From a virus (lineage: Duplodnaviria; Caudoviricetes): 64,000 bases of DNA. The notes beneath the pieces are model-generated. The model was not told the DNA's origin, made no database searches, and worked only from the letters and a program-made list of their open reading frames with translations. Below are positions 20,887 to 53,911 of the stretch, one piece after another; the first letter of the stretch is position 1, and each line of letters begins with the position of its first letter. A program made the position numbers and the translations under genes. The stretch spans positions 1 through 64,000 of the IMG/VR virus record IMGVR_UViG_3300020050_015887. The stretch is one strand, 5' to 3'.

Positions 20887-22137
20887 ATGGCCTTCACACC
20901 CTGGCTCACTAGTGAAAAACTAATTGAAGCGGTAAAACGCAAGATATCTTTTCCCGTAGATCAAAATACGTTTAGTGAAGATGATATTTTAGCTTTTGCT
21001 AATGAAGAAATGCAAATTTCTCAAATTCCTAACGTTATGGAATTTCATGAAGAGTATTTTGTAACTTCAATTGGTATTACACTTGAGCCCAATAAAAGCA
21101 GATATGCTATTCCAAATAGAGCAATTGGAATGAAACTTAGGGATGTTATGTATGGTGATGGTAATGTCACAATACAACAACCTTATGGTAATATTTTTGA
21201 AATGACCATGATTAATCCTGGTGATAAAGCATACTTTCAAAATACTAATTCTTCATATCCAGGTTTATTAAAATACTACTTGGAAGGTAATAGCATTGTT
21301 TTGGTTCCAAGCATTTCAACTAATGCTTCTGGTTTATTGGTTTGTTACTTTTTCCTTCGACCCAATCAACTAGTTCAATCTGAACGTGCTGCTATTATTT
21401 CGGGGTTTTCTAAAACCGTAACAATTAATAACGCAACTTTGGCTCCCGGTGACACATTAACTATTTCTAGTGAAAGTTTTACTGCTGTTGCTTCTGGTGC
21501 TGGAGCTAATGAGTTTGAAATTGGAACAACTAACACTCAAACTGCAACAAATTTAGTCGCCTGTTTAAATACTAACGGTATTGTTACAGCAACTAACGGT
21601 TCTCCCGCAACTAATACAGTTAAAGTTGTATATCAAACTAGGTCTTTTGATGTAACGGCTTCCAATACTGTAGCAATTGCAGTTCAGTCTACTATCGGTT
21701 TAGAAAGTGATACAGATATCCCAGCAAACATCACCGATGGTAGTTTAGTAGATGTTTTACAAACTCTCCCTGGTCATAAAACATATTATTATGATGTTTT
21801 AGTTCCAGCGGGCGGTGTTTCTGGTTCAACCTTATCTTTATCTGAGGATGATGTACCAGAAGATTTTCAAATTGGTGATTATATTTGCTCAGAAAACGAA
21901 TGTATTATTCCTCAAATACCACCAGAACTACATACAGGACTTGCAGAACGGGTTTGTGGACGCATTTTAAGTGCAATTGGTGATAGAGAAGGACTACAAG
22001 ACGTTAACGCTAAAATTGAACAAATTAATTCAAAAGAAGGTGCATTAATTGACAATCGTGTAGACGCTTCACCTAAAAAATTGTTTAATAAACGTTCTTT
22101 TATGAGAATGAATAAGAGTAATCAGAGAGTATTCTAA
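20887..22137 (+). CDS. putative tail adaptor / tail tubular protein A with inserted domain
   Basis: Directly precedes the nozzle gene; EDDILAFANEE N-terminal helix; internal Thr/Ala-rich insert. Confidence 0.6.
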   Translation: MAFTPWLTSEKLIEAVKRKISFPVDQNTFSEDDILAFANEEMQISQIPNVMEFHEEYFVTSIGITLEPNKSRYAIPNRAIGMKLRDVMYGDGNVTIQQPYGNIFEMTMINPGDKAYFQNTNSSYPGLLKYYLEGNSIVLVPSISTNASGLLVCYFFLRPNQLVQSERAAIISGFSKTVTINNATLAPGDTLTISSESFTAVASGAGANEFEIGTTNTQTATNLVACLNTNGIVTATNGSPATNTVKVVYQTRSFDVTASNTVAIAVQSTIGLESDTDIPANITDGSLVDVLQTLPGHKTYYYDVLVPAGGVSGSTLSLSEDDVPEDFQIGDYICSENECIIPQIPPELHTGLAERVCGRILSAIGDREGLQDVNAKIEQINSKEGALIDNRVDASPKKLFNKRSFMRMNKSNQRVF

Positions 22138-25100
22138 TGCCTCAACAAAAAGTCACATTACAATCTACCGGTTTACGTACTTCACCCAACCCATTAACTG
22201 TTGGTCAGGGGGGATTATCCAAAGCTAGTAATGTTATTATCCGTAGAGATAACATCGTAGAACAACGTAGAGGGTTTAAAGTGTATGGTACTGGTATGAC
22301 TTCCCAAGCCAAACAACTATTAGAATACAAAGGAACCCTTTTACGACATTTTGAAGACACTTTACAATACGACACACAGGAATTAAACACCAGTGATGTA
22401 TATGAATTTAATACTTTTGCTGGCAATTTTAGCGAAGTAGATGCTGGGTTAAGAATTAAATCCATTGAATCTAATGGAAATTTTTATTTTACAACTTCTG
22501 ATGGTATTAAAAAAATATCAGCTACTAACGCATCGGATTTTACAGAAGATGCTGGTTATATTATTGACGCTGGCGGAGTTAAAGCCACAAACGGCAGTGC
22601 TAGAATTGCATTAGAGCTTGGTGAAATTACCGGATTTTTACCAGAAGACAGTGCTGTTGCTTATCGTTTAGTTTGGGGAATACGAGACGTTAACAACAAT
22701 ACAATTCTTGGAACACCAAGTGAACGTATTCTTATTTACAATCCTTTAATGGGGTTTTTAATTCCTGATTATATGCGTGTTCTTGGTGTACTAGATAATA
22801 TTACTAATACAGCCACTACCGCTTTTATTAGTGATGACAATTACGTTTCTACATTATCTTTAACGCAAGATGCAACTCCTGTAGATTTACAAACAAATCT
22901 ATTAGCTTTAGCTGAAAAAATTGATGATGACATTTTATACGCTACCGCAGATAGCACTGCACCATTAAACATGGATATGTGTTCTATTGATAGTGCTAGT
23001 TTAGCAACTATTACATTTAGCTCTGGTGATGCTACGCAGTATTTTGATGTAGGAAGTGAAATTGAAATTAATGGGTTTACTAGTACATCACCTTTAAAAA
23101 CTCAATTTAATAACATATTTGTTGTTTCTTCTGTAGTTTCAAGTCAAATTACATTTTTAGTTCCTTCTGCTTCTGAATCTATCTCTTCTACGTCAGTAGA
23201 TGCAACAGCACAAATTGTTTCTAATGAATTTAGAAACAGCATGACTGAAGTGGTATATCAAGGTAGTAATTTTAATTTAAATACGTATGATCTTTCTTCT
23301 CCTGTAAATAATAACGATTTAAAAATTCTTCAAGCTGCCATTGAACAAATTATTGTTTTATTACAAACTGTTCCAGATACAGTTGTTAGTGCTTTAGACA
23401 AAACAACATATGTTGATGAATTACAAATTACAACAACTACTAATGTTATTTTAAATATTAACATACCTGATGCAGTGACAAGCTCACATTTTTTACAGAT
23501 TTATAGAAGTAATACGGCTCAAGCCACTGGAACTACAGTATTAAGTGATTTAGTACCAGATGACGAAATGCAACAAGTATATGAAGCTTTTCCAACCGCA
23601 ACTGAATTAGCAGCACATAGAATGATTGTAGAAGACATCTTAATTGATGATTTTAAAGGTGCCAATCTTTATACAAATCCAAGTAGCGGAGAAGGAATTT
23701 TACAAGCTAATGACGTTCCACCTATTGCTAAAGATATTAATCAATTTAGAAATTCAATTTATTATGCCAACACAAGAACTCGTCAAAGATTAAATTTAAA
23801 TCTTCTCGGTATTCAAAATTTTAAAGCTGGTGAAATTGATGGCATAATTAGTGGTTCTTCTGTTGAAGTTACCACTGGAGAACCTCATGATTTATCTACT
23901 AACGATTTAGTTTATATTAATGGAACAGGAATTGTAGGTTTAGATGAACAAATTTTTCCAGCAACAGTTATTAACACTAGTGCATTTACAGTTCCTTTTA
24001 CTTCAGCCAGTAGTTCAAGCGTTGGTTATTGGACTAATGCAATGGTTTCTGTTGTAAAAGATTCAAGTGCATCTAATTATTTCTTTATTCAAAGTCAAGC
24101 CCAACAAGCAACTATTTCAACAATTGCTGATGTAGCTGACAGTTTAAATGGTGATTATTTTACAATTAGTAGTGCTAATGATAACTATAATTATTATGTT
24201 TGGTATAAAACATCTGGTGGTGCGTTAACAGACCCAGCACCAACTGGTTATACAGGAATTCAAGTTAATGTTGCTACTGGAGCTTCAGCTAATGCTGTTG
24301 CAGAAGCAACTCGTGATGCATTACGTCTTTATCCTCAAAATTTTATAGTAAGTGGTGCAACAAACCAAATTATTGTATTAAATTATGAAGAAGGACGTTC
24401 TACCATTCCTGCTGCACAAACGTCAGGATTTACTATTGCCATTGGACAATATGGTAGAGGTGAATATACGGTAAAAAATGAAGTGGGTTTATCTAACAAC
24501 ATTTCTCCGGCTATTGCAGTAGACGAAACGGCAAGAAGTTTTCAAAACGTAGTAAATTCTAATACATCAGAAACGGTGTATATTTATTATCTATCTGGTT
24601 TAAATGATACGCCCGGAAAAATGTTAGTAGAAGGTAGACAATTATCTTCAGAACAATTTTATATTTTAGCTAATAATGATGAAGTTGGAACATCTTTTGA
24701 CCCAGCTATTACTCCTAATCCCAACAATAGAATTACAAATACTGCTTCTACACCTACAGTAATCACAGCATCTGTCCATAATTTAGTAAGTGGTGATGAT
24801 GTTGTAATAGCTTTTAGCAATAGCGGACCCAATATTAACGGTGTTCACACTGTAACATTTTTAACTAGTACGACTTTTTCTATAGCTGAATCTGTTTCTG
24901 TTGCAGGCACTAGCGGAGTAATGATTAAGGCTAAGTTAGCAATATCATCTAACGATGAAGCCAAAAAGAATAGAATTTATTATTCAAAAGTACAACAACC
25001 GGAAGCAGTTCCTATTGTAAATTATCTAGATGTTGGTAGCAGTGAAAAAAACATCTTAAGGATTTTTCCATTAAGAGATAGTTTATTTGTGTTTAAAGAA

Positions 25101-27155
25101 GATGGTTTATATCGTTTATCGGGTGAAACTTTACCTGTATCTGTGGCTTTATTTGATAGTAGCTGTATTCTTGTTGCTCCAGATAGCATTGGTATTGCCA
25201 ATAACATTATTTATGGTTGGACTACTCAAGGTATTCATTCTGTAACTGAATCTGGTGCTGAAACCATTTCTAGAGATATTGATAATATTATTCTTCCTGT
25301 AGCATCAGCAGAATATCCAAATTTTAGAACAGTAACTTGGGGTGTTGGTTATGATAGCGATAACTCATATACTGTATATACAAACACCGCACCGACAGAT
25401 GAATATGCTTCAATTGCTTATAGGTATAGCAACCTAACACAAAGTTGGACTACCGTAGACAAAGAAACTACTTGTGGTATTATTTTATCATCAGATGACA
25501 AATTTTATATGGGTGCTGGAGATATTAATAATATTGAACAAGAAAGAAAAACGTTTTCTCGTTTTGATTATGCAGATAGAGAATATAATTTAAATTTGGG
25601 TGAAAACGGTTATTTTGATGAAGGTGCTAGTTTATATATTGCTGCATCAGATGATTTATCCGAAGGTGATGTACTGGTACAAGAACAATATGTAACAGTT
25701 TACAACTATAATGCTTTATTAAAAAAATTAGACAATGATAGTGGGGTAGCTCAAGTTGCAATTACTTCTATTAGCACAAGTGCTGTTCCTACTATTACAA
25801 CAACGTATTTTGATTTTCCTTCTGCTTCAGTTAATACAACAACTAATATTATTACAGTAAATAATAATGGATTTGTTGCAAACCAAAAAATTAAATTTGC
25901 AACTACTGGAACATTACCAAGTCCTTTAAATAGTACATCAACATACAGAGTTATTAATCCTTCTACTAATGGGTTTTCTGTTGCTGACGATTTTAATGGT
26001 GCTAGCATTGATATTACTACCCAAGGTTCTGGAACTCACACTGTTTATATTTATAATAATTTAGTTGCTGGCAATTATGTTACCCTATTACAAACTAATT
26101 GTGACCCAGTTATTGATGGTAGTCATAGTGTGACTTCTGTTATAAACGGTTATACTTTTACAATTACATTAGATGAAGCAATTACAACTGCCGGAACATC
26201 TGGACAAGCTAGACTAGATTATTATGAAACTTTACAAATGTCAGGCGGAGAAGAACCTAAAACTCGGTTATTAGAATTAGCAACTAAGCTAGATTCTGAT
26301 CCAGGGTTACGTCAAGCTGTATACTTAGAAGGAATCCAAACTGAATCAGGTACAATAACTTCAATTGCAGCAACTAATCCTGCACAAATTACTACTTCAG
26401 GGCCGCATAATTTGGTTGATGGTAGAATTGTATCTATTACTGGTACCGATTCTACACCAGAAATTGACAATATTTTTGCGGTAACAATTATTAACGCAAG
26501 TGTTTTTAGTGTAGATGCGTCGGTCATTTCAACTGGAACAACAGGTTCATTTTCTACACAAAATTCAAACATTGAAGACATTCAAGCGTGTTTTAATTAT
26601 CTAGTTGATACATTAAACGATGATAGCGGACCAACGTTTAACAACTATGTAAACATCACATATGCAACAAACTTTGAAGTATTAATAACTAACATTAATA
26701 AAAATACAAACATTGTTCAAGTTACTCCAGCAATTAATTTATTAGTTGGACCTATTGTTGGATACGAAGCTATAGAAACAGAAATTATCTACACACCTGA
26801 GACAATGGAAGACCCGCTTAACTTTAAACACATAAGAGAAGCAACCATCATGTTCCTTAATAAAGCGTTTACTAGAGCAACGGCTTACTATTCAACAGAT
26901 CTCTTGCCAGAATTTAAAGAAGTTCCATTTGAAGGTGACGGCAATGGTATTTTTGGAAGCAATACTTTTGGTAGTGGTTACTTTGGTGGTGGTAGTCATG
27001 GTGCTCCTTTTAGAACATATCTACCAAGACAAGCACAACGCAATAGATACATCATTGTACGCTTTAAGCACCGTATAGCCAGAGAGATCTTTGGAATTAC
27101 AGGGGTTACACTCACTGGTCAAACAGGGCTTTCTAGCAGAGCATATAGAGGGTAA
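22137..27155 (+). CDS. tail nozzle / tail tubular protein B-like, 1672 aa, with many inserted beta modules
   Basis: Propeller-type motifs (NRIYYSK.QQPEAVP, LRDSLFVFKEDGLYRL, GC.APDSI-like CILVAPDSI); repeated HNL..G..V.I modules. Confidence 0.7.
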   Translation: MPQQKVTLQSTGLRTSPNPLTVGQGGLSKASNVIIRRDNIVEQRRGFKVYGTGMTSQAKQLLEYKGTLLRHFEDTLQYDTQELNTSDVYEFNTFAGNFSEVDAGLRIKSIESNGNFYFTTSDGIKKISATNASDFTEDAGYIIDAGGVKATNGSARIALELGEITGFLPEDSAVAYRLVWGIRDVNNNTILGTPSERILIYNPLMGFLIPDYMRVLGVLDNITNTATTAFISDDNYVSTLSLTQDATPVDLQTNLLALAEKIDDDILYATADSTAPLNMDMCSIDSASLATITFSSGDATQYFDVGSEIEINGFTSTSPLKTQFNNIFVVSSVVSSQITFLVPSASESISSTSVDATAQIVSNEFRNSMTEVVYQGSNFNLNTYDLSSPVNNNDLKILQAAIEQIIVLLQTVPDTVVSALDKTTYVDELQITTTTNVILNINIPDAVTSSHFLQIYRSNTAQATGTTVLSDLVPDDEMQQVYEAFPTATELAAHRMIVEDILIDDFKGANLYTNPSSGEGILQANDVPPIAKDINQFRNSIYYANTRTRQRLNLNLLGIQNFKAGEIDGIISGSSVEVTTGEPHDLSTNDLVYINGTGIVGLDEQIFPATVINTSAFTVPFTSASSSSVGYWTNAMVSVVKDSSASNYFFIQSQAQQATISTIADVADSLNGDYFTISSANDNYNYYVWYKTSGGALTDPAPTGYTGIQVNVATGASANAVAEATRDALRLYPQNFIVSGATNQIIVLNYEEGRSTIPAAQTSGFTIAIGQYGRGEYTVKNEVGLSNNISPAIAVDETARSFQNVVNSNTSETVYIYYLSGLNDTPGKMLVEGRQLSSEQFYILANNDEVGTSFDPAITPNPNNRITNTASTPTVITASVHNLVSGDDVVIAFSNSGPNINGVHTVTFLTSTTFSIAESVSVAGTSGVMIKAKLAISSNDEAKKNRIYYSKVQQPEAVPIVNYLDVGSSEKNILRIFPLRDSLFVFKEDGLYRLSGETLPVSVALFDSSCILVAPDSIGIANNIIYGWTTQGIHSVTESGAETISRDIDNIILPVASAEYPNFRTVTWGVGYDSDNSYTVYTNTAPTDEYASIAYRYSNLTQSWTTVDKETTCGIILSSDDKFYMGAGDINNIEQERKTFSRFDYADREYNLNLGENGYFDEGASLYIAASDDLSEGDVLVQEQYVTVYNYNALLKKLDNDSGVAQVAITSISTSAVPTITTTYFDFPSASVNTTTNIITVNNNGFVANQKIKFATTGTLPSPLNSTSTYRVINPSTNGFSVADDFNGASIDITTQGSGTHTVYIYNNLVAGNYVTLLQTNCDPVIDGSHSVTSVINGYTFTITLDEAITTAGTSGQARLDYYETLQMSGGEEPKTRLLELATKLDSDPGLRQAVYLEGIQTESGTITSIAATNPAQITTSGPHNLVDGRIVSITGTDSTPEIDNIFAVTIINASVFSVDASVISTGTTGSFSTQNSNIEDIQACFNYLVDTLNDDSGPTFNNYVNITYATNFEVLITNINKNTNIVQVTPAINLLVGPIVGYEAIETEIIYTPETMEDPLNFKHIREATIMFLNKAFTRATAYYSTDLLPEFKEVPFEGDGNGIFGSNTFGSGYFGGGSHGAPFRTYLPRQAQRNRYIIVRFKHRIAREIFGITGVTLTGQTGLSSRAYRG

Positions 27156-38402: not shown

Positions 38403-38698
38403 TTTTCTTCTTTAGTTTTTGTTCGATTATCGCAACCTTCATTTGTACATTTTCTAAAATAACGATTACCCAAAGATACCTTTTCCATATTTCCAACGTG
38501 ACAAACGTAACATATTTTTTTAGCAATCTTTTTAGCTGATACAACCGCTTCCTTTTCCTTATCGTCAAATAAAAACTTATTATATCCTTTGTTAAGTTTT
38601 CTAATGCTAGCAGTTAAACCTTTAATATGGTTTTTAAGTTCTCTATTTTCTCTTTCTAAACGGTCAATGATTTTATCTTCCCGTTCGTATTTTTTCAT
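38399..38698 (-). CDS. coiled-coil plus zinc-ribbon protein
   Basis: CYVC...CTNEGC. Confidence 0.6.
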   Translation of the reverse strand: MKKYEREDKIIDRLERENRELKNHIKGLTASIRKLNKGYNKFLFDDKEKEAVVSAKKIAKKICYVCHVGNMEKVSLGNRYFRKCTNEGCDNRTKTKEEK

Positions 38699-39153
38699 AA
38701 GCCACTACTTCCAAACCCCTTGCTACCACGTTCACTACTCCATAATTCTTCTACTTCTACAATAGGCGGTGTCTCACATTTGTATACAATAAGCTGTGCA
38801 ATACGATCGCCTTTATTAACTTTGTATCCAAGTTTACCTAAACTAAACACATTGTCATATTGTGATTCATTATTAAGATTGTGTAACACTACCCCAATTT
38901 CACCAGTAAACTTAGCATCAATAACTCCAGCACCACTACGCAGCCCTTTCAAAGCCATACTGCTTCTATCACCAATAATACCCACATACCCATCTTCAAT
39001 GTGAATAGCTACACCGGTAGGGATTAAACGAGTTTCACCCAATGGAATAAACATATCTACTAAGCTATAAAGATCGACCCCTGCATCAAAACTGTGATTG
39101 CGTGTAGGCAATGTTGCATATTTATTAATTTTATAAACTTCAATTTTATTCAT
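38695..39153 (-). CDS. dut: trimeric dUTPase
   Basis: DAGVDLYS, GDRSSMA, GVIDAKFTGEI, GDRIAQL, RGSKGFGSSG motifs. Confidence 0.95.
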   Translation of the reverse strand: MNKIEVYKINKYATLPTRNHSFDAGVDLYSLVDMFIPLGETRLIPTGVAIHIEDGYVGIIGDRSSMALKGLRSGAGVIDAKFTGEIGVVLHNLNNESQYDNVFSLGKLGYKVNKGDRIAQLIVYKCETPPIVEVEELWSSERGSKGFGSSGL

Positions 39154-41720: not shown

Positions 41721-43853
41721 TTACTCCTTACCGTAAGCCGTAGCTTCTACGGCACTGTTGTTGGACACTACTACATATTTACAATTCTGTACAAATTCAT
41801 CGATATTACGGGCGTTTAAATAAGTCATACCGCTACGTAATCCACCCTCAAAGTAGTTCATTAAATTTTCAACACTACCAGACACGGGAATTGTATAAGA
41901 TTCACCCTCTGGCGCTCTAAAACTAGCAGTTTTGTTTTGCACTTCATATGAAGACTGAGAAGCACTTCCCCTGTAAATCTTAGATAAAGGTGACATATCA
42001 GCAATGGGTGCAGCACTCTCAATCGTGCCAGCCATTAAACGACCCATAAAAACCCCTTTAACGCCTAATGCCAGGGCTTTTGATAAATCTCCAGGGGTAG
42101 ACATACCCCCGTCTTGAATGAGCGTATAACCCGTTCTAGCACAATCTAAAATACAAGAAACCGAAGGGGTTCCTACCCCGGCAACAATGCGAGTTTTGCA
42201 CGCGCTATTATGAACAATTGCATTATTGGCAATAAAACTGTGAGTAGGACAATCTACTTCAATGTCATATGTTTCAACAATTTCATCGATTGTTGTATAA
42301 TTGTTAATTCTGACAATTTGGTAATTCTCTGTTAATTGAGAATTCCAGGTTTTAAACGTTTTAGCACGAAAAGAAGGTTTAATATTTGCTAATGTAGCAT
42401 TTTTTAAACCACCAACTGTTGGTTTTCTATAAGACTGACTTGGAAAATAACCATATAATAAATAATTTATAATTGCAAACAATTCTATTAACTGTGGTGA
42501 TGTATTTGTTAATACTAATTTACCGTCGTCCTCGTGACCATCACTGTCAATTAAACCATCAAAAATTCCACGTAAATAGTTATTATTAATAACTAAATAA
42601 TTATTTGGTAAATGTTTTTCTTGTTTTTTACCAAAATTAATCATTAATCTTGCCAATGGTAAACAGTTAGCATTAACAACAATAACGTTATTGATCTTTT
42701 TTGTGGTTACGTTAATGTTAAATACTTCTTTTAATGCGGTAGTTAATTTATAAACAATGTCCGTTTCGGTTTTATTAAAATACCAAGAAACTTTTCCGCG
42801 AACAGAATTTTTATGAATATTAACTCTTGAGTGACCATCACCCAAAAATGTTCCAAAAATATATCCCAAATTATACGAAGATTTAATTTCATTATTATAT
42901 TCTTGAGCTTCAAAAGATTTTGAACGAATTGAAAATTCTTTTAAATTAATTAAAAAGTTTTCTTTTAAATCGAATTTAATATTTTTTGGCATTAACAATG
43001 TGCTTTTTTGGGTTTGATCAATTCTTTGCCATTTATATTTAGAATCCCCACTTTTGGTTGATTTATCTAAAACATTACCCAAACCCACGTCGTTAATATT
43101 TTTTATTGTAGAATAATCACCGATCCAATGTCGATGATCGGGCGTAACGATCGTTTCTTTGTAAAAATTATTGTTTTTATATTTAACTACCGATCTGAAC
43201 CCGGAGTTTTTTGTTCCAATAACCTTTACCGATTGGCCATTTTTATTAATGACAAAATCACCAACTTTTACATCTTCAATATTTTTATAGGTAGCATTTG
43301 ACATTAACACTCGCGTTCCAGCAGCAAAACAACCAGGCCCTACACCAATCTTCCAAGCCGTTGGAATTTTACCACTTTTTTCAACAAACGTGTTAATTTG
43401 TCCACTATTATCAAAATTACCAACAATAATATCTACGTCAAATAACATTTTTAGTGCTTTAAATTGGTTTAACACCTTCTCTTGAGCGCCGTTGGCCACG
43501 TCAATTACCAAAGTTTCAGCGCCAGCGTGAACTAAAGCCTCTGCGCGTTCAATCTCTGCGGTTCCTACACCTACAGACACCCAAGGCTTAACGTTATTAT
43601 AAATACCTTCTTTAAAAAGAACAATATTTTGGTCAATAGTACAAAAACGATGTACCGTAGCAATACCACCTTGTTTAATAACAGCAGCAGATAATTGCGG
43701 CGAATAAACACTATCCATATTAGAAGCGATAATAGGTACTTGTAATGTTGTGTTGCCAATTTTAACACTAGTGTCTACGTCGGAACGTGATGAAATAGTT
43801 GTAAAATTTGCTGGCACTAGGGAAATATCTTTAAATGTTAAATTTTTATTCAT
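41721..43853 (-). CDS. IMP dehydrogenase / GMP reductase family protein (no CBS domains), intein-containing
   Basis: PIIASNMDSV, IDVANG, KIGVGPG|SACKTR, QDGG, MGRLMAG, YRGSAS, PEGE, GGLRSGMTY. Confidence 0.9.
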   Translation of the reverse strand: MNKNLTFKDISLVPANFTTISSRSDVDTSVKIGNTTLQVPIIASNMDSVYSPQLSAAVIKQGGIATVHRFCTIDQNIVLFKEGIYNNVKPWVSVGVGTAEIERAEALVHAGAETLVIDVANGAQEKVLNQFKALKMLFDVDIIVGNFDNSGQINTFVEKSGKIPTAWKIGVGPGCFAAGTRVLMSNATYKNIEDVKVGDFVINKNGQSVKVIGTKNSGFRSVVKYKNNNFYKETIVTPDHRHWIGDYSTIKNINDVGLGNVLDKSTKSGDSKYKWQRIDQTQKSTLLMPKNIKFDLKENFLINLKEFSIRSKSFEAQEYNNEIKSSYNLGYIFGTFLGDGHSRVNIHKNSVRGKVSWYFNKTETDIVYKLTTALKEVFNINVTTKKINNVIVVNANCLPLARLMINFGKKQEKHLPNNYLVINNNYLRGIFDGLIDSDGHEDDGKLVLTNTSPQLIELFAIINYLLYGYFPSQSYRKPTVGGLKNATLANIKPSFRAKTFKTWNSQLTENYQIVRINNYTTIDEIVETYDIEVDCPTHSFIANNAIVHNSACKTRIVAGVGTPSVSCILDCARTGYTLIQDGGMSTPGDLSKALALGVKGVFMGRLMAGTIESAAPIADMSPLSKIYRGSASQSSYEVQNKTASFRAPEGESYTIPVSGSVENLMNYFEGGLRSGMTYLNARNIDEFVQNCKYVVVSNNSAVEATAYGKE
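42207..43331 (-). mobile_element. intein with LAGLIDADG homing endonuclease (375 aa)
   Basis: Starts CFAAGTRV, ends IVHN with +1 Ser; blocks LGYIFGTFLGDG and LRGIFDGLIDSDG; block F TYDIEVDCPTHSFIAN. Confidence 0.93.
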
Positions 43854-43859
43854 GTGTTT

Positions 43860-43888
43860 ATTTTATCTTAAATTATGTTATTTGTCAA
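43860..43888 (-). promoter_or_regulatory. sigma70-like promoter
   Basis: TTGACA-17 nt-TAAAAT directly upstream of the IMPDH/GMPR start. Confidence 0.65.
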
Positions 43889-43905: not shown

Positions 43906-44532
43906 TTATACATAAACTTTTTCAATTACACCAGTTCGTGTTAAATCCGTAAAGTTATTAATTTGAAACAAATGATAATCGATAAGACGCGCCGTCTGAT
44001 TTATACTAAGCTGTTCAAATAAATCTGTATCTTTTCTAAATCCAAAAACAACTATAGCTGTCCCTGGACCATTTTGTTTTTTTTCATAAATACCTTGTAA
44101 GGTAACAACACACCATTTTGATGAATCGACTACATTTTGTACTCCAAAACAACATGCAACATAATTATAAATAGAAAAACTACTAAAAAATTCATCCGGT
44201 AATGGTCTGTCATCTGCAAATTTACTATCTGGGAATAAAACAATGTTCATTTCTTCCCAATAGGATTTGCTCTGTTGTATGGTGTCATACCACTCACCTT
44301 TGGGTTCTACTATTAAAACTTGAATATTTTGTTTATTGCAATACTCTATTAAATCGGTTTTTTCTTTACGTGTAACTACTAAAGGAACTAAATTATATTT
44401 AGCACAATAATTAAAATGCCATTGAATTAATGGTTGATTGGTTACAGGGTCAATCAATAATTCTTTTGATTGATTGGGTAACATACCCATCCGTGTACCT
44501 AAACCTGCTGCCGGAATAATTGCGCGTTTCAT
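43906..44532 (-). CDS. sugar-1-phosphate nucleotidyltransferase (NTP_transferase family)
   Basis: MKRAIIPAAGLGTRM...SKELL signature. Confidence 0.8.
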   Translation of the reverse strand: MKRAIIPAAGLGTRMGMLPNQSKELLIDPVTNQPLIQWHFNYCAKYNLVPLVVTRKEKTDLIEYCNKQNIQVLIVEPKGEWYDTIQQSKSYWEEMNIVLFPDSKFADDRPLPDEFFSSFSIYNYVACCFGVQNVVDSSKWCVVTLQGIYEKKQNGPGTAIVVFGFRKDTDLFEQLSINQTARLIDYHLFQINNFTDLTRTGVIEKVYV

Positions 44533-44741
44533 TTTAATAAATCCTCTATTAACACGTCTTGATAAAAGTTTAAATAATTTAAATATTCATCTTCTAATAA
44601 AACAGGTTTTTCTAAATCCAAATATTTGTCGGTTTTGAGTTTATTTTTTTGAAAATGTTCTTTCCATGTAAAATATAAAAGTGGATCAATTTTTCTATTT
44701 GTTGTTGAACCATCTTTGTTTAAGATAATCATTATAATCAT
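44529..44741 (-). CDS. C-terminal-motif family protein (QDVLIEDLLK)
   Basis: Shared motif; tandem paralogue of 44745-44948. Confidence 0.7.
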   Translation of the reverse strand: MIIMIILNKDGSTTNRKIDPLLYFTWKEHFQKNKLKTDKYLDLEKPVLLEDEYLNYLNFYQDVLIEDLLK

Positions 44742-44744
44742 ACG

Positions 44745-44948
44745 TTATTTTAATAACTCATTTATTAAAGCGTCTTGTGTATAATTCATAAAATCTGAAT
44801 ATTCGTAATCATATAAAATTGGAATGGGAGCATTTAACCACACGTCCCTTGTTTTATGTTTGGTGTAATATTTTTTCCATTGTTTGTACTTTTCAGGATT
44901 TACGTTTTCTATTTCTGTTAATCCATTTTTTAATACATGTATTTTCAT
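44745..44948 (-). CDS. C-terminal-motif family protein (QDALINELLK)
   Basis: Shared motif; tandem paralogue of 44529-44741. Confidence 0.7.
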   Translation of the reverse strand: MKIHVLKNGLTEIENVNPEKYKQWKKYYTKHKTRDVWLNAPIPILYDYEYSDFMNYTQDALINELLK

Positions 44949-45745
44949 ATTTTATTTGAATATTGTTGTAAAAATAATAACAAATCATTACTAGGTTTAA
45001 ATCGGTTTTGATGTTTTGATATTTTATTTAAATCTTCCGGTAAACCAGAATATTGAAAACTACACAATTTAACAATTTTATTATCTAGTTTATTATGTAT
45101 CCAACAAACTCCGTTTTGTTCAATAATGTCTCTTTCGTGTAAATTATAATAAGCAACATTATAAGAATAATCTCTTAAGATTGTAACATTATCAACAAAA
45201 AAAGGCAAACAGTTTAACCAACTCTGATCTAAAAAAATACCACTACCAGATACACAATGGGTTTTTTGTGTATTGTATTGCCATTTAAGAAACTCTATGG
45301 TTTCTTTTGTGTTGACCCACGCCACGGTGTCACTATTAATATGACCAGTTTGTATCACACCAATCTGATTAGGAAAATTTTGGTCTACTGGAAGTGGTGT
45401 AAGAGTGTGAGGTAATACAACGTTGTTATTATTGTCTAATAATTTATCTGGGTAACAAAAAAATTCTACATCTGCGCCAGTAAATACAACCTTTTCATAT
45501 CCTTGTTCAAAAGCATCTAACACAATTAACGGTCTAATGCTACAGATAATTTGCAAAGGGTCTTTGTATTGTGTTGAGTTATATAAATGATTAATGTTAA
45601 TTACTTCATCAAAAACGGGCGTTTCATACCCAATGTGGTATAGAATTTGTGTTGCGTGTGGGACATGTTTTTTTACACTATCAAATAACACCTTATAATT
45701 TGATAGATATAAATCAGAGGCAATACAGATAAATGCCGTTTTCAT
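44945..45745 (-). CDS. putative GT-A glycosyltransferase
   Basis: RP..V, VFTGADVEFF, FLDQSWLN..P, YNVAYYNLHER, FQYSG pattern recalled from uncharacterised GT-A proteins. Confidence 0.65.
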   Translation of the reverse strand: MKTAFICIASDLYLSNYKVLFDSVKKHVPHATQILYHIGYETPVFDEVININHLYNSTQYKDPLQIICSIRPLIVLDAFEQGYEKVVFTGADVEFFCYPDKLLDNNNNVVLPHTLTPLPVDQNFPNQIGVIQTGHINSDTVAWVNTKETIEFLKWQYNTQKTHCVSGSGIFLDQSWLNCLPFFVDNVTILRDYSYNVAYYNLHERDIIEQNGVCWIHNKLDNKIVKLCSFQYSGLPEDLNKISKHQNRFKPSNDLLLFLQQYSNKI

Positions 45746-46350
45746 TATTCAATGTTCCAGGTTGGTTTATTAATTTTTTCAAGCACTAATAGTATTTCGT
45801 ATTGTCCCCAAGCGTGTTGTTCTGGTGGTATAGAATAGTTATATCCTTTATCGCCGTCTTCTAATACTCGTACTCTATAACTATTAGGTTCAAATGCTTG
45901 TTCAATTTCTGCCAACAACGTGGCCGGAGAATAGAATACGCGATGATCTCCATTATATCTACTGGGTTTATTAAGTTTCTTTTCGTAAAGAAATTGGTGC
46001 GGCACTGCAATAATTAAATGACCGCCAATCTTAATAACCCGCATCCATTCCCGTAGGGTTTCAATACGATTATCAATGTGCTCTAAAACGTGACTACTGT
46101 AAACCGCGTCTTGAGTGCTATCACCAAACGGCAAATGTAACCCGTCATACCCTGGAGTATTTAAATTAATAACTTTAGTGTTTGGTAATACACCAACGCT
46201 ATCAATATAACCATCCGCACCTATCTCAACTGTTTCACCGGACATATATTTATCAAAAAAACCATTGTCAATTTTATCTTCATACGTGCGGCTAGTTTCT
46301 TCACCAACCCTACGTTTAAGTAATTCTTTTTTATTATTTTTATAACTCAT
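45745..46350 (-). CDS. class I SAM-dependent methyltransferase (type 11-like)
   Basis: VEIGADG, LPFGDSTQDAVYSSHVLEHI, EWMRVIKIGGHLIIAVP. Confidence 0.85.
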   Translation of the reverse strand: MSYKNNKKELLKRRVGEETSRTYEDKIDNGFFDKYMSGETVEIGADGYIDSVGVLPNTKVINLNTPGYDGLHLPFGDSTQDAVYSSHVLEHIDNRIETLREWMRVIKIGGHLIIAVPHQFLYEKKLNKPSRYNGDHRVFYSPATLLAEIEQAFEPNSYRVRVLEDGDKGYNYSIPPEQHAWGQYEILLVLEKINKPTWNIE

Positions 46351-47321
46351 AAAATTTTATCCAATTCTAGTATAAATAAATCCGGCGTTAAAGATTTTAA
46401 ACACTCAATTTCAGCACCGGTTGCATTTTTATCGTAATAACACTTAGTAAAAGATTCATGATGAAAAGCAAATACAAAATTACTTTGACAAAACCGACAC
46501 TCAACAGAATCAGGCGGTATTACAGGTATAAAATTATATCCTTTAACTCCGTTGTTTCTAAACGGTACGCGATGTTGTGGGTCTACCGTTGTAAAACCAC
46601 ATACAACCGTGTTTGTTGGGTGTGTTGCAGCCAAATGAATTAAACCATTATCCAAACCAACTGTAGTTTTTGCTCCATATAAAATTTTAGCTGTTTCTAG
46701 AAGATTAGTTTGGTCTATTAAATTAATTCCTTTGTGGTAATTAATAGTGGTGTCAAATTTACCTTTAATAATATAATTAAATCCATTGTCGGTTTCTTTT
46801 TTACCTAAAAATACTGGAGTATAACCTTTAAACAACACATAATCAATAATAGAATTAATGGTGGTAGGTAAGAACTCTCTAACCGTGCTGGTAAAGCCGG
46901 TTGTAATAACCACATATTTATCTGGCAAGTTAAACTTAGTGATATTAACGTCATCAAGTTTAATAGGAAGGTAGTTTTTGTGTTTATCTTCTACTTGTTT
47001 ATTAATAAATAAATTAAACCCATGTTCAGTCATATGGTATGACAGGTTTGTGTGAGTATTAGAAGCTGAGGCTCTAGTCGGAAATAGTTTATTAAACTTA
47101 TCTTTTTGAGAAAACTTTTTTAATACAACTCTACCAGGAGTTAAAGAACGCTTAGCAATATCATAGAAAAAATCAGGTATCCAAACGTGGGGGATTACTT
47201 CAGGGTGATTTTGAATTACATATTCAATAGCTGGAAGTCTTGCAAGACAATCACCCAATCCACCATCGTTAAATAAGAAATTCACATGAAATGTTCTGTC
47301 CGCTTTATTATTTCTAAACAT
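46347..47321 (-). CDS. GT9 family (heptosyltransferase-like) glycosyltransferase
   Basis: GGLGDCL, NLIDQTNLLET, VGLDNGLIHLAA, C..CQ...C motif. Confidence 0.82.
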   Translation of the reverse strand: MFRNNKADRTFHVNFLFNDGGLGDCLARLPAIEYVIQNHPEVIPHVWIPDFFYDIAKRSLTPGRVVLKKFSQKDKFNKLFPTRASASNTHTNLSYHMTEHGFNLFINKQVEDKHKNYLPIKLDDVNITKFNLPDKYVVITTGFTSTVREFLPTTINSIIDYVLFKGYTPVFLGKKETDNGFNYIIKGKFDTTINYHKGINLIDQTNLLETAKILYGAKTTVGLDNGLIHLAATHPTNTVVCGFTTVDPQHRVPFRNNGVKGYNFIPVIPPDSVECRFCQSNFVFAFHHESFTKCYYDKNATGAEIECLKSLTPDLFILELDKIL

Positions 47322-48136
47322 TATTTACGGTCCTGAATTTCTTTTAATGTTGGAGCATATACCCCAAATTGTTCTACACAAACAGCAGCCGCCTTAGAAG
47401 CAAATTCAATTGCTTTGTTTAATTCATATCCGTTCATTATAGCATAAGTTAATGATGCAATACAAGTGTCACCACACCCAGTAACATCAACAACTCTAGT
47501 GCTTAGTGCTGGCATAGAATCAATAAAGTTTTGTTGTTGTGTTTTGGCGTGCATACCATTATCACCATCTGTAATAACAACAATTTGAGCATTAGTAATT
47601 TCAAATAGTTTTCTAAAAATTTTAGGCAGGCTAGTTTCTCCGGTAGCCGTTTTGGCTTCTTCTAAATTGGGTTTTAATAAATAACAATTTTTATAGTTAT
47701 TAAAATCTACATTCTTACTTGGATCAACAAAAGTTTTAATACCAGAAGAGAATACAGCATTATAAATTGCTGGAGTAAACCAACCCTTACCATAATCTTC
47801 AACAATAATAGCATCCGTGGTTGTTTTGTATAAGTTAATAAAATCTAAGATCTCTTGTTCAGAACAGTTTCTAGCGGGATAATCAACATCAATACGAGCT
47901 ATTTGTTTATCTTTTTCAAACACTCTAGTTTTAGTGATGGTGTTGCCATCTGCTTTTTCATGAACATTTACACCAAGTTTATACAAATTCGTAGCCACAT
48001 TATGAGACATTCCCCATTTTGTAATTTGATTATTAACTTTTAATACAGGAACAAGAATGTTTTCTGGTGATTGACGTGTGTGTTCGGTGTATAAATATAT
48101 ATCAGCGCACTGTTCGCCGAGTACCATGACATTCAT
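47321..48136 (-). CDS. heptose-7-phosphate kinase (PfkB family, HldE/RfaE kinase domain only)
   Basis: RQSPE..VPV, NVATNL..LG, EDYGKG, KPNLEEA, VVDVTGCGDT. Confidence 0.85.
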   Translation of the reverse strand: MNVMVLGEQCADIYLYTEHTRQSPENILVPVLKVNNQITKWGMSHNVATNLYKLGVNVHEKADGNTITKTRVFEKDKQIARIDVDYPARNCSEQEILDFINLYKTTTDAIIVEDYGKGWFTPAIYNAVFSSGIKTFVDPSKNVDFNNYKNCYLLKPNLEEAKTATGETSLPKIFRKLFEITNAQIVVITDGDNGMHAKTQQQNFIDSMPALSTRVVDVTGCGDTCIASLTYAIMNGYELNKAIEFASKAAAVCVEQFGVYAPTLKEIQDRK

Positions 48137-48384
48137 TTTAATACACTTTCTAAATTAGAATAAAATTTATCATTAAAAAAATCATTTAATAACCGAACTT
48201 CTCGTTCAAGGAATAAAAGTTTAACTATTTCTGTATTAGTGTTTTGTTTTCTAAAATTAATATGATCTTGTAAATACCACCGGTAATCATTATTTAATGA
48301 ATTTAAAAATTCATCCAATTGTTCTTGTGTTAAAGTAACAATTTTGTCTTTACTTCCACCTGCTTGAAAAATTACATATTTCAC
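48133..48384 (-). CDS. C-terminal-motif family protein (FYSNLESVLK)
   Basis: Shared motif; sits between gmhA and the kinase. Confidence 0.7.
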   Translation of the reverse strand: MKYVIFQAGGSKDKIVTLTQEQLDEFLNSLNNDYRWYLQDHINFRKQNTNTEIVKLLFLEREVRLLNDFFNDKFYSNLESVLK

Positions 48385-48953
48385 AGTAATTGTTCCTCAA
48401 CAAAATTACAAATAGAATGCATTAGCACTTCATGTACTGTTTGTATTGTGCTAGTTCTTTCAGATTGAGCATGAAATGTTTTCGTAGCTAAAAAACTACC
48501 TTTGCTATTATTTTTACCTGAAAACAAGATGCTTTTAATTTTATGTTGTTCGCAATATTCTAAAGCTTTTACTATATTTGCAGAATTACCGCTAGTAGAA
48601 AATGCAATGAATAAATCTTTATCCGTGGCCTTACCTTCTAGTTGCCGAGAAAACACTTGTTCATAACTATAGTCGTTTGCAATAGCTGTAATGGTAGCTA
48701 AATCGGTGGTTAAAGCCTCTACATTGAGCGCCTTGCGTTCTTTTTCAAACCGTCCTACCAATTCCCCTGCCATGTGGGAGGCGCCGCTAGCAGACCCGCC
48801 GTTTCCAGCAATAAATATCTTATTACCTGTTTGTATAGTTTTTGTGATGATGTTCTGAATAGATTTTAAAGTAGTTTTATTAGCAATAATAGAATTGGTC
48901 AGTGAGGTTTGCACTTCTAAAGTGTGGTTTTGAAAGTAGTGTTGTAAATTCAT
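48381..48953 (-). CDS. gmhA: phosphoheptose isomerase
   Basis: AGNGGSA, TAIANDYSYEQVFSRQ, FSTSGNSANIVKAL, IQTVH SIS-domain motifs. Confidence 0.92.
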   Translation of the reverse strand: MNLQHYFQNHTLEVQTSLTNSIIANKTTLKSIQNIITKTIQTGNKIFIAGNGGSASGASHMAGELVGRFEKERKALNVEALTTDLATITAIANDYSYEQVFSRQLEGKATDKDLFIAFSTSGNSANIVKALEYCEQHKIKSILFSGKNNSKGSFLATKTFHAQSERTSTIQTVHEVLMHSICNFVEEQLL

Positions 48954-49168
48954 TTTAATAACTTATCAATAGATTTACTAACTTTTTTTTCTAGTTTAAA
49001 CTGTCTTAACAATTTTCTAATTTTTTTATCTTCAGAATAAGACATAGAAGGAAAATCTTGATCAATCCAAATAACTTTACTATCATCTAAAACGTTAGAA
49101 ATTTTTTGTATAAATTCTTTACTTACATATTCTTTTTTACCATTAAAATATAATATATAATGTTTCAT
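48950..49168 (-). CDS. C-terminal-motif family protein (VSKSIDKLLK)
   Basis: Shared motif; ATGA overlaps at both ends. Confidence 0.7.
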   Translation of the reverse strand: MKHYILYFNGKKEYVSKEFIQKISNVLDDSKVIWIDQDFPSMSYSEDKKIRKLLRQFKLEKKVSKSIDKLLK

Positions 49169-49644
49169 GGTAGGTTTAATCCAGATATTACTTTTAATAA
49201 AATCCAGTTATTCTTAGCACAAATTCCTGCCAATTGACCACGCGGATCATCATCCACCAATATAACTTGATCGCCTTTTTTTTGATATTTTTTAATCTCT
49301 TTTTGTTTAAAATATCCATAACTTGTTTTATCATTTGATGAACGCATTATTAATTTACGTTTAGGAAATTTATGTTTGGTTAACCATTTTACGGTTATTG
49401 CTCTATACTTTTCATCTCTGCTAGTTAGATAAACAAACTTACCTAATTTTCTAGCAAGTGTACGCATAGACTTAATAACTTTGTCATTAAGCATGTCATG
49501 TTCTTTTTGAACAAGGTCCAACCAATGTAAATATTCAGCACTATAATGCGTTTTATTTTTAGGTGCTTTAATAGACTTAAGACGGCGTGAGCTATCACAC
49601 ACCGTACCGTCTAAATCAACATAAATTTTTACTTTATTCTTCAT
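49165..49644 (-). CDS. HAD-superfamily phosphatase
   Basis: YVDLDGT motif I, LTSR motif II, LVDDDP motif IV; ATG 49644. Confidence 0.8.
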   Translation of the reverse strand: MKNKVKIYVDLDGTVCDSSRRLKSIKAPKNKTHYSAEYLHWLDLVQKEHDMLNDKVIKSMRTLARKLGKFVYLTSRDEKYRAITVKWLTKHKFPKRKLIMRSSNDKTSYGYFKQKEIKKYQKKGDQVILVDDDPRGQLAGICAKNNWILLKVISGLNLP

Positions 49645-49659
49645 AATAAATATTTGCAA

Positions 49660-53295: not shown

Positions 53296-53549
53296 GCCAA
53301 CACCTTTTCAATAACATTATTGATGTTACGTTGTTTTAACCAAATAATAAAATTGGGGTTATGTTGAAATAACGGGTCAAGAGTTAAAAAATACGGTTTT
53401 TGAAGTGTATTTAAATAGGTATAAAAATAATCTTTATTTACAAAACCGTTATAACCGTCATCGTTATAAAACGACAAACAAAATTCTCTGTACAACTCAG
53501 GGTCAACTTGTATTTCTTCTGTTCCAATTTTTATTGTTAATAACTTCAT
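53292..53549 (-). CDS. C-terminal-motif family protein (INNVIEKVLA)
   Basis: Shared motif; ATGA overlaps. Confidence 0.75.
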   Translation of the reverse strand: MKLLTIKIGTEEIQVDPELYREFCLSFYNDDGYNGFVNKDYFYTYLNTLQKPYFLTLDPLFQHNPNFIIWLKQRNINNVIEKVLA

Positions 53550-53911
53550 AACTTATTATACCCCGTTTCAGTTGTATAATAAACATTTTTTATTCCATAT
53601 TGCTTAATAATTTCTTGACACACTGAACAAGGTTTAGACATGGCCATGCTACCGTCTTGCAATTCTCTATACACGTAAATGCTTCCACCTTGGGTTTCTT
53701 CTATAGACAATCCCAATAAGGTTTTAAATTCTGCATGGATATAACCACCCCAACCTTTACTTTTTGTATGGGTTTTAGTCATGTCGTTAGAAGCAAAGTT
53801 TAATACCCGATGTTTTTTATCTAGAACAACGGCACCAAGTTTAAATTTACTATTGGATTTTTGGGCAGACTTCTTGGCTAGTCTAAAAAATTGCTTTTTC
53901 ATTTTAAACAT
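53546..53911 (-). CDS. cytidine/dCMP deaminase-like zinc protein
   Basis: KLGAVV, IHAEF, SKPCSVC, GIKNVYYT. Confidence 0.85.
   Translation of the reverse strand: MFKMKKQFFRLAKKSAQKSNSKFKLGAVVLDKKHRVLNFASNDMTKTHTKSKGWGGYIHAEFKTLLGLSIEETQGGSIYVYRELQDGSMAMSKPCSVCQEIIKQYGIKNVYYTTETGYNKL

Follow-up and report, generated by a model that had tools for sequence, protein, structure and literature searches.

An operon of eleven chained ORFs

The window analysed here covers positions 1 to 64,000 of IMG/VR record IMGVR_UViG_3300020050_015887, from an uncultured phage whose whole genome is 84.5 kb and 97% complete. Its minus strand carries, at 43906-49659, 11 chained and mostly overlapping ORFs. Adjoining ORFs overlap by 1-4 nt, with a single 3-nt gap as the exception. 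The cluster is located in the early/replication module and not among the virion genes. It encodes, from its 5' end, a HAD-superfamily phosphatase (HAD164), a sedoheptulose-7-phosphate isomerase (GmhA190), a stand-alone PfkB kinase (Kin271), a virus-type GT9 glycosyltransferase (GT9_324), a methyltransferase (MT201), a probable second glycosyltransferase (GTA266) and a short nucleotidylyltransferase (NT208). All genes named in an earlier sequence-only reading were found at the same coordinates, co-oriented on the minus strand, and the limit of 49644 given there is the alternative ATG start of HAD164. Its description of the cluster as phage-encoded, heptose-related and non-canonical is borne out.

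Four small tagged ORFs that were not on that gene list are interleaved among the enzymes, also on the minus strand. These are s72 (48950-49168; 72 aa, ending in IDKLLK), s83 (48133-48384; 83 aa, LESVLK), s67 (44745-44948; 67 aa, INELLK) and s70 (44529-44741; 70 aa, IEDLLK). None gave a family match in Pfam/PHROG-type searches, s72 matching nothing in either Pfam or PHROG. s72 is probably not a pathway enzyme.

Heptose synthesis genes

The pathway to ADP-L-glycero-beta-D-manno-heptose comprises GmhA, HldA or HldE, GmhB, HldC or HldE, and HldD. Judging from their sequences, the isomerase and the HldA-type kinase of the phage are intact. GmhA190 (48381-48953) scores 153 bits against NF010546 and 145 bits against TIGR00441, both under the equivalog cut-offs (209 for TIGR00441), and 125 bits against the GmhA structure 1tk9. 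It keeps the His and Glu of the GNGGSA..H..E motif, the STSGNS loop and the Q...H motif, which contain the catalytic and zinc residues. Kin271 (47321-48136) corresponds to domain I of HldE and is predicted to be a heptose-7-phosphate 1-kinase of the beta type. Its best model is TIGR02198 (rfaE_dom_I), with 184 bits for a cut-off of 345 and 64 bits for the next model. It also matches PF00294 (78.9 bits) and phrog_8133 (6.6e-44). The best PDB match is HldA 4e84 (59 bits; the next sugar kinase scores 36 bits), and the GxGD motif is present as GCGDT. The beta-type assignment made previously is thus supported by both the best model and the best structure. Relatives of this kinase are encoded on more than 556 viral contigs.

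The case of HAD164 (49165-49659; TTG start at 49659, alternative ATG at 49644) is less clear. Its DxDxT and DD motifs are intact. The protein matches PF03767 (43.5 bits), PF25109 (29.1 bits) and phrog_415, annotated as polynucleotide kinase (5.6e-20), and its best PDB match is Pnkp1 4xrp (1.2e-4). No GmhB match was found among the models and PDB structures searched. Three homologues were found, one of them on an 86,728-bp contig. The suggestion that this HAD replaces GmhB is plausible by position only, and HAD164 may be considered a candidate heptose-1,7-bisphosphate 7-phosphatase on that ground; its nearest relatives are polynucleotide-phosphatase-type HADs.

The remaining steps of the pathway are not encoded in recognizable form. 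At E<=1, PF01467, the family of the HldC/HldE adenylyltransferases, matches each of 14 control genomes but nothing in the 84.5-kb phage genome. tblastn searches of the whole genome with two phage HldC proteins and with a bacterial GmhB returned nothing, nor did PF01370, the family of the HldD epimerase. The absences first noted in the window (HldE adenylyltransferase domain, GmhB orthologue, HldD) therefore extend to the entire genome. Related kinases were compared at 80 viral loci; an HldC-like gene adjoins the kinase at 74 of these, and no locus has an NT208-like gene. Because of this, the lack of HldC in the present phage is atypical.

A virus-type GT9 with a putative metal finger

GT9_324 (46347-47321), the core gene of the cassette, is a heptosyltransferase-like enzyme of GT-B fold that matches PF01075 with 34.1 bits (cut-off 22). 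We found 192 homologues, a large number of which lie on contigs of 85-95 kb, and examined 34 viral loci. The family is almost entirely viral according to the Atlas, and our literature search found no paper describing it. Foldseek and VIA both place TibC first. The invariant cysteines C275, C278, C294 and C307 align with C339, C342, C358 and C370 of the TibC iron finger, and D24, T144 and R148 align with TibC Asp110, Thr226 and Lys230. As far as sequence can tell, GT9_324 thus retains the catalytic Asp and the donor-site motifs of heptosyltransferases, plus the four-cysteine putative metal finger of TibC. The two proteins also differ. GT9_324 has 324 residues for 406 in TibC, the structural alignment begins at TibC residue 73, and the N-terminal beta-barrel (TibC residues 1-97) is missing. 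The position of TibC Arg286 is not conserved in the family and Trp305 is replaced by His229. The score against the BAHT equivalog TIGR04414 is 26.2 bits, for a cut-off of 200.

At the sequence level, the best match is of the WaaF/WaaC kind (1psw, 4.1e-7), as is the donor-site motif. This would be consistent with remodelling of the host envelope, GT9_324, MT201 and GTA266 acting on LPS core or another lipid-linked glycan. However, alignments with WaaC/WaaF show no Cys4 finger of the TibC type in these enzymes, scores with TIGR02193 (26.7 bits, cut-off 185) and TIGR02195 (21.1 bits, cut-off 135) are far under the cut-offs, and the viral distribution of the family also argues against such a role.

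The relatives of the cassette inform on the origin of the donor. Three complete genomes of 85-89 kb (G001, G002 and G004) keep the GT9 and have neither GmhA nor kinase nor NT208, so that in these phages the host has to provide the donor. A PolA-type phage (G006) has the same GT9 and methyltransferase pair alongside a canonical set of GmhA, kinase and HldC, a pairing that connects this family of GT9 enzymes with the beta-heptose route. We conclude that ADP-heptose probably comes from the host or is completed there. The GT9 lies beside DNA polymerase and nucleotide-metabolism genes in all relatives.

MT201 and GTA266, probable partners of the GT9

MT201 (45745-46350) is a class I SAM-dependent methyltransferase (PF08241, 41.5 bits). 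Copies 50-56% identical adjoin the GT9 at four loci (L002, L004, L005 and L006) and lie nearby at two others (L008 and L016). A copy with 36% identity is found in Butyrivibrio, in a cluster of GT9 genes, HldE, GmhA and GmhB. Butyrivibrio is not known to have LPS, so that this cluster speaks against an envelope target. In G001, the place of MT201 is occupied by a TylF sugar O-methyltransferase and a pyruvyl transferase also follows the GT9. MT201 is a probable sugar O-methyltransferase partnering the GT9.

GTA266 (44945-45745) has no significant Pfam or PDB sequence match. In the ESM Atlas, its structure matches glycosyltransferase clusters with TM values of 0.84-0.92, part of the members being GT8/PF03407. 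The motifs GADxE, PH, TGH.N.D and QYSG are conserved. From these Atlas structure matches only, GTA266 is a probable glycosyltransferase of GT-A fold, GT8/Nucleotid_trans-like. GT9 together with GT8 forms the enzyme set for LPS core assembly, and this combination counts in favor of the envelope. Fusion proteins of other viruses (Atlas) join GT9 to a GT8, a methyltransferase or a GT4 domain. We infer from these fusions, from the TylF and pyruvyl transferase genes of G001 and from the Butyrivibrio cluster that the enzymes build one shared glycan.

NT208 and the activation step

NT208 (43906-44532) has an NTP_transferase fold and is a predicted sugar-1-phosphate nucleotidylyltransferase. UDP-glucose pyrophosphorylases (GalU) are its nearest matches by both sequence and fold, but it does not rise above the cut-off of the GalU equivalog model TIGR01099 with full-length similarity. 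A homologue of GTA266 was detected at four related loci (L002, L005, L007 and L012), and NT208 adjoins this GT-A gene at each of them. The two genes are separated in the window by just two small ORFs. At L010, NT208 follows an unplaced 216-aa ORF in which a HIDSDV stretch was seen by eye; this may be another GT-A. NT208 is therefore a probable supplier of NDP-hexose for GTA266, with activation of heptose-1-phosphate as the alternative role.

This alternative role corresponds to the hybrid route proposed from the sequence, in which NT208 would replace HldC and activate the heptose-1-phosphate produced by GmhA190, Kin271 and HAD164. This would make the pathway self-sufficient as well as unusual in its chemistry, with an NDP-heptose, possibly not ADP-heptose, as the donor for the GT9 or GTA266. 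Several observations point in this direction. The genome has no HldC/HldE adenylyltransferase domain in spite of its frequency beside viral kinases, NT208 belongs to the same overlapping operon, and every NT208 homologue locus examined also holds the GT9. The 86,728-bp contig is listed for the closest GT9 (69%), for an NT208 relative (48%) and for a HAD164 relative (53%), presumably as one contig. Finally, HddC 5xhw is among the structural matches of NT208 (TM 0.70), ranked under GalU/RmlA enzymes. HddC is the NTP_transferase-fold guanylyltransferase acting on heptose-1-phosphate in the GDP-D-glycero-alpha-D-manno-heptose pathway, whose other enzymes are GmhA, the GHMP-type kinase HddA and GmhB.

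The distribution of NT208 and its sequence argue the other way. Related phages G003 and G005 have NT208 and their records hold neither GmhA nor kinase; none was found either in the locus DNA examined of L002, L007, L012 and L119, all NT208-bearing. Conversely, the orthologous GT9s of G001, G002, G004 and G006 occur without any NT208. Wherever the GTA266 homologue was detected, NT208 lies directly beside it. The best matches are GalU enzymes, and the HddC model NF049965 gives 15.5 bits for a cut-off of 300. Moreover, the substrates of known NTP_transferase-fold enzymes are alpha-D (or beta-L) sugar-1-phosphates, whereas HldA-type kinases make the beta-D anomer. The hybrid route is thus supported in part, through the true absence of HldC, and weakened by the GalU likeness, the pairing with a GT-A gene and the occurrence without GmhA or kinase. 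We consider it possible, but rather unlikely and not the best-supported reading. The accompanying idea that the neighbouring IMPDH/GMPR gene feeds GTP is unsupported: a homologue adjoins the GT9 in G002, which has no NT208.

A bolder version appears quite improbable. NT208 would be a new beta-heptose-1-phosphate nucleotidyltransferase of NTP_transferase fold producing an NDP-heptose foreign to the host, and the Cys4-finger GT9 and MT201 would heptosylate and methylate the phage's own virion proteins. In such a scheme, the beta-heptose-1-phosphate would come from the HldA-type kinase together with a HAD that is not a GmhB.

Proposed pathway and acceptor

Our best explanation, with a probability of about 0.45 as a whole, is that the stretch is one translationally coupled operon, a modular cassette for glycan assembly with a virus-specific GT9 heptosyltransferase at its core. 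GmhA190 would convert sedoheptulose-7-phosphate to heptose-7-phosphate, Kin271 would produce the beta-1,7-bisphosphate and HAD164 would strip the 7-phosphate. Host HldE or HldC, with HldD, all presumed present, would complete ADP-heptose, so that the phage genes would raise the supply and not constitute a self-sufficient route. GT9_324 would then transfer the heptose to the acceptor and MT201 would O-methylate it. The GalU-like NT208 would make an NDP-hexose, probably resembling UDP-glucose, from which GTA266 would attach a second sugar. As a counter-point, it is atypical for a phage with GmhA, kinase and phosphatase to leave activation to the host, and NT208 could be the replacement.

The acceptor is most likely a protein, for example one of the Ser/Thr-rich fibre or tail proteins that the phage itself encodes, with odds that nevertheless fall a little short of even. 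No conserved candidate acceptor or substrate gene adjoining the GT9 was seen in the neighbourhoods of the relatives.

A host envelope glycolipid such as LPS core comes second. To the arguments given above for an envelope target may be added the location of the cluster away from the virion genes and the initial interpretation of cyanophage heptose genes as LPS genes (PMC1079782). On the other side, no integrase was found in the subset of ORFs scanned. Envelope remodelling is rather unlikely overall. If true, it could mean receptor masking, a block to superinfection or less sticking of progeny to debris.

The phage DNA is an unlikely acceptor. Here a modified base would carry the heptose, together with its methyl group and the second sugar. 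The position of the GT9 next to DNA polymerase and nucleotide-metabolism genes would be in line with this, and a preprint reports phage gene clusters that produce heptosyl- and di-heptosyl-5hmC (10.1101/2023.12.21.572611). However, no gene for a thymidylate-synthase-like hydroxymethylase, ThyX, a TET/JBP dioxygenase or a C5 cytosine methyltransferase is present in the genome, and the reported DNA heptosyltransferase resembles T4 beta-GT, while the matches of GT9_324 are GT9 enzymes. DNA hypermodification is thus highly improbable. Among the targets envisaged previously, LPS and virion proteins remain candidates and DNA becomes unlikely, as no hydroxymethyl-pyrimidine route is encoded.

Comparison with known systems

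GT9_324 shares with the bacterial autotransporter heptosyltransferases TibC/Aah (BAHT; PDB 4RAP, 4RB4; PMC4358343), which act on proteins, the GT9-type GT-B catalytic domain, the catalytic Asp, the Thr/Lys(Arg) donor-site positions and the four finger cysteines. It differs by the lack of the beta-barrel, of Arg286 and of Trp305, and no autotransporter substrate gene is nearby. WaaC and WaaF (PDB 2H1H, 1PSW) are set apart by the extra Cys4 insertion of GT9_324, its sub-cut-off equivalog scores and its almost entirely viral family.

Precedent for a protein target comes from a different host group, the mycobacteriophages, for which we know of no report of heptose in virion glycosylation. Their glycosyltransferases decorate their own capsid and tail proteins, as PMC12619734 describes, citing Freeman et al. 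2023.

The heptosyl-5hmC clusters (Pyle et al., 10.1101/2023.12.21.572611) likewise combine a HAD-like enzyme, a nucleotidyltransferase and a heptose-installing GT-B transferase. The latter is T4 beta-GT-like and the clusters lie beside C5-methyltransferase and TET-type enzymes, none of which was found here.

NDP-heptose enzymes have been surveyed across kingdoms including viruses, with nucleotidyltransferases defined as HldC/HldE-type (Tang et al. 2024, in PMC11573728); their role in viruses is described there as unknown. The isomerase and kinase steps of that viral set are shared, whereas an HldC/HldE-type nucleotidyltransferase is absent here. Cyanomyoviruses (P-SSM2 PSSM2_309-311; S-CAM1, S-SSM7, S-T4) also combine a phage GmhA with a short HldA-type kinase that stands alone and shares 28-30% identity with Kin271, and their heptose genes were read as 'LPS genes' (PMC1079782). 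Immediately ahead of the kinase gene, these phages have one for a canonical HldC-type nucleotidyltransferase, and P-SSM2 encodes a nucleotide-sugar epimerase as well. The window has neither, and adds to the cyanophage set a HAD, a Cys4-finger GT9, MT201, a GT-A glycosyltransferase and a GalU-like nucleotidyltransferase.

Genome setting and organization of the cassette

The phage record is 84.5 kb long and is rated 97% complete in IMG/VR, the window covering its first 64 kb. About 80 bases are common to its first and last 100 bases (genome 1-100 and 84401-84500), which probably means that the record, although labeled 'linear', is either terminally repeated or an assembly closed into a circle. 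Up to ~33.4 kb, the plus strand carries virion genes; identified among them are the portal and a fiber protein whose C-terminal domain is a K1 lyase. The minus strand is devoted to replication and nucleotide metabolism, with a primase-helicase, a split family-B polymerase, a Dam methylase, a MoxR/VWA pair, ERF, a PD-(D/E)XK nuclease, a dUTPase, a dCMP deaminase, a second deaminase and a peptide deformylase. The dUTPase and the two cytidine/dCMP-deaminase-family genes are located at window positions 38695-39153 and 53546-53911 and genome positions 68219-68629. Despite their presence, no thymidylate synthase of either type was found in the genome. No tRNA gene was found in the window.

The cassette (43906-49659, minus strand) lies inside this minus-strand block. 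Its eleven ORFs each overlap the next by 1-4 nt, except at one junction with a 3-nt gap. In transcription order, these are HAD164, s72, GmhA190, s83, Kin271, GT9_324, MT201, GTA266, s67, s70 and NT208, where numbers give lengths in residues. Every enzyme named in the sequence-only reading was recovered: a HAD phosphatase (HAD164), GmhA, a PfkB-type kinase (Kin271), a GT9 glycosyltransferase, a methyltransferase (MT201), a probable second glycosyltransferase (GTA266) and an NTP_transferase-fold enzyme (NT208). Scattered between these enzymes are four small minus-strand ORFs that have a C-terminal motif in common: s72 (48950-49168) ends with IDKLLK, s83 (48133-48384) with LESVLK, s67 (44745-44948) with INELLK and s70 (44529-44741) with IEDLLK.

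A gene of the IMPDH/GMP-reductase family (41721-43853, minus strand) neighbors NT208. Its reading frame contains an intein, which comprises a Hint domain and a homing endonuclease of LAGLIDADG type; relatives have homologues of ~365 aa that lack the intein (locus L004, 9326-10423). The 52-nt gap between NT208 and this gene contains a near-consensus sigma-70-like site (43860-43888, minus strand; TTGACA, 17 nt, TAAAAT). The promoter scan as a whole was uninformative, with 48 sites versus 46.7 in shuffles. This enzyme had been proposed to feed GTP to the heptose route. A homologue adjoins GT9 in the related phage genome G002, where NT208 is absent, and the promoter-like site intervenes in the window. 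The gene is not tied to the cassette, and the proposal is unsupported.

A viral GT9 transferase with a TibC-like finger

The AlphaFold model of GT9_324 is confident (pLDDT 91). Foldseek ranks TibC first (TM 0.71-0.73), followed by a Veillonella GT9 (0.64), WaaF (0.60) and WaaC (0.55), the last two being LPS core heptosyltransferases. TibC, from enterotoxigenic E. coli, heptosylates proteins and contains iron; its iron-finger ligands are Cys339, Cys342, Cys358 and Cys370 (PMC4358343). In a profile alignment, the four invariant cysteines of GT9_324 fall exactly on these residues. D24 falls on the catalytic base Asp110, and T144 and R148 on Thr226 and Lys230. On the other hand, GT9_324 lacks the N-terminal beta-barrel of TibC, shows no conservation at the Arg286 position and has a histidine in place of Trp305. 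Its donor-site motif, GLDNGLLH, belongs to the WaaC/WaaF type, and TIGR04414, the model for the autotransporter heptosyltransferases (BAHT) that include TibC, gives 26 bits for a cut-off of 200. For these reasons, we classify GT9_324 as a virus-type GT9 with a predicted TibC-like finger, and not as a BAHT member.

GT9_324 has 192 homologues, many of them on 85-95 kb contigs, and the best 120 are 40-69% identical to it. Alignment of 25 members shows that G21, G23, D24, T144, R148, D224, G226 and H229 are invariant, together with the four cysteines. Almost all of the structural clusters closest to GT9_324 in the ESM Atlas are viral, with GT9-GT8, GT9-methyltransferase and GT9-GT4 fusions among them. 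Viral relatives of GT9_324 and Kin271 were recovered by alignment-based searches only, which gave 34 viral loci for GT9. Single-protein scans of viral contigs with GT9_324, HAD164 and Kin271, as well as metagenome scans with Kin271 and NT208, gave no match. Among cultured phages, the region had no match in a DNA search, nor did GT9_324 in a protein search.

A modular cassette

In relatives of 85-89 kb, GT9 lies in the replication module, in several cases beside the family-B polymerase, and MT201 usually adjoins it. Three related genomes that are complete, as judged from terminal repeats or 100% completeness (G001, G002 and G004), have GT9 but lack GmhA, the kinase and NT208 anywhere. The GT9 donor must therefore be host-made in these phages. 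In G001 (87.6 kb), a TylF-type sugar O-methyltransferase and a polysaccharide pyruvyl transferase (locus L003, 9172-9747 and 10288-11193) come right after GT9 in place of MT201, a tailoring set that differs while the GT9 core is unchanged. In G006, a different phage of PolA type (47 kb), the GT9-MT201 pair is accompanied by GmhA, a kinase and a protein of 140 aa that resembles the heptose-1-phosphate adenylyltransferase HldC. The cassette is thus modular: relatives keep GT9 and a methyltransferase, and the heptose-supply and GT-A plus NT208 modules are optional.

Heptose-phosphate enzymes

GmhA190 is recognizable as a clear GmhA. It aligns with Campylobacter GmhA (1tk9) with 125 bits and keeps the GNGGSA..H..E, STSGNS and Q...H motifs. 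Its relatives, 36-49% identical, are scattered over many phyla (Pirellulales, Gammaproteobacteria, Aquificales, archaea) and point to no particular host. Kin271 scores 184 bits with the HldE domain-I model, versus 64 for the next PfkB model. Its best solved relative is the Burkholderia heptose-7-phosphate kinase HldA. Kin271 also retains the GxGD motif.

The HAD motifs of HAD164 are intact. This protein had been suggested to stand in for GmhB, and its place in the operon agrees with this, but its relatives are Acid_phosphat_B and polynucleotide-phosphatase-type HADs rather than GmhB. A genuine Butyrivibrio GmhB likewise matches the PNK 3'-phosphatase Pfam family, so this resemblance is compatible with a GmhB-like function. 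HAD164 is a purely positional candidate for the GmhB step. A role in an RNA-repair set is also conceivable from its polynucleotide-phosphatase type and from the RtcB or RNA ligase genes that relatives have at its position near GT9 (L004, 6040-7251; L005, 12179-13246; L006, 9191-10318). The window's genome itself has neither RNA ligase nor RtcB.

The adenylyltransferase domain of HldE, GmhB and the epimerase HldD had been reported absent from the window, and the same holds for the whole 84.5-kb genome, where neither a cytidylyltransferase-fold domain nor an epimerase was found. Phage HldC and bacterial GmhB used as tblastn queries also gave no match in the genome.

Sugar activation

Stand-alone HldA-type kinases are common in viruses: the kinase alignment search returned relatives on more than 556 viral contigs. 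Gene content was taken from the 80 best loci (L126-L205, IMG/VR). GmhA was detected in 15 of these and a GmhB-like HAD in 11; none has a relative of NT208 or HAD164. An HldC-like gene is present in 74 of the 80, nearly always adjoining the kinase and mostly just upstream, which makes a phage kinase without HldC rare. This rarity, together with the other nucleotidyltransferase in the same operon, underlies the proposal that NT208 activates the heptose in place of HldC. In addition, a relative of NT208, a relative of HAD164 and the closest GT9 are each assigned to a contig of 86,728 bp, presumably one and the same. However, known NTP_transferase-fold enzymes take alpha-D sugar-1-phosphates, whereas HldA-type kinases give the beta anomer, so that such a route would be chemically unusual.

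The distribution of NT208 also weighs against this route. NT208 directly follows a GT-A gene in L002, L005, L007 and L012; in L010, the preceding ORF (216 aa, unplaced) contains an HIDSDV stretch, by eye a possible DXD motif. G003 and G005 encode NT208, and their records contain no GmhA and no kinase; neither gene was found within the fetched DNA of L002, L007, L012 and L119. Of the initial proposal, the absence of an HldC/HldE adenylyltransferase and the presence of NT208 in the operon stand, and heptose activation by NT208 is a serious but less likely alternative. GTA266 has no significant sequence match. Its predicted structure is grouped in the Atlas with GT8/Nucleotid_trans-type transferases, and four homologues have the GADxE, PH, TGH.N.D and QYSG motifs in common. 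The two genes are adjacent in relatives and parted by two small ORFs in the window. NT208 would supply GTA266 with an NDP-hexose, which fits its position and distribution.

Possible acceptors

DNA, one of the acceptors put forward initially, is unlikely. Published heptosyl-5hmC clusters adjoin C5-MT/TET-type enzymes and use a T4 beta-GT-like transferase (preprint 10.1101/2023.12.21.572611). Family searches of the genome found no thymidylate-synthase-like enzyme, ThyX, TET/JBP or C5 methyltransferase, and DNA modification was rejected.

The target may be protein, as suggested by the TibC-type finger, by a GT9 family largely confined to viruses and by a gene cluster of Butyrivibrio fibrisolvens 16/4 (L105, FP929036.1 531729-544238). 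This cluster groups three GT9 genes with HldE, GmhA, GmhB and a methyltransferase that shares 36% identity with MT201. To our knowledge, this Firmicute has no LPS, and the cluster therefore implies that a methylated heptose glycan is attached to an acceptor other than LPS. The target may also be LPS, in line with the WaaC/F-like donor motif, the GT9 and GT8 combination and the early-module position of the cassette. Five tail or fiber-like ORFs contain 20-29% Ser+Thr, which is common for such proteins and points to no acceptor. Virion ORFs rich in Ser/Thr are located at 13669-15405, 15418-15756, 16894-18909, 19106-20230 and 22137-27155.

Comparison with known systems

The large, almost purely viral GT9 family with its TibC-like metal finger is the likely user of viral heptose. 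In a lineage of uncultured phages of 85-90 kb, GT9 is the constant core, around which heptose supply, methylation, pyruvylation and second-sugar modules vary; in other viruses such modules are fused to it. If the target is the virion, glycosylation of phage particles would extend well beyond mycobacteriophages, which would matter for how hosts, grazers and immune systems recognize phages.

Phage genes for heptose synthesis have been on record since 2005. Our literature searches turned up no description of a GT9 or TibC-like transferase from a phage. Production of NDP-heptoses by viral enzymes was demonstrated recently, with the viral use of the sugar left open (PMC11573728). Lacking the usual HldC, the window offers a natural test case of whether a GalU-like enzyme such as NT208 can activate heptose. 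In the known phage heptose genes of cyanomyoviruses, by comparison, HldC, the kinase and GmhA lie together (PMC1079782).
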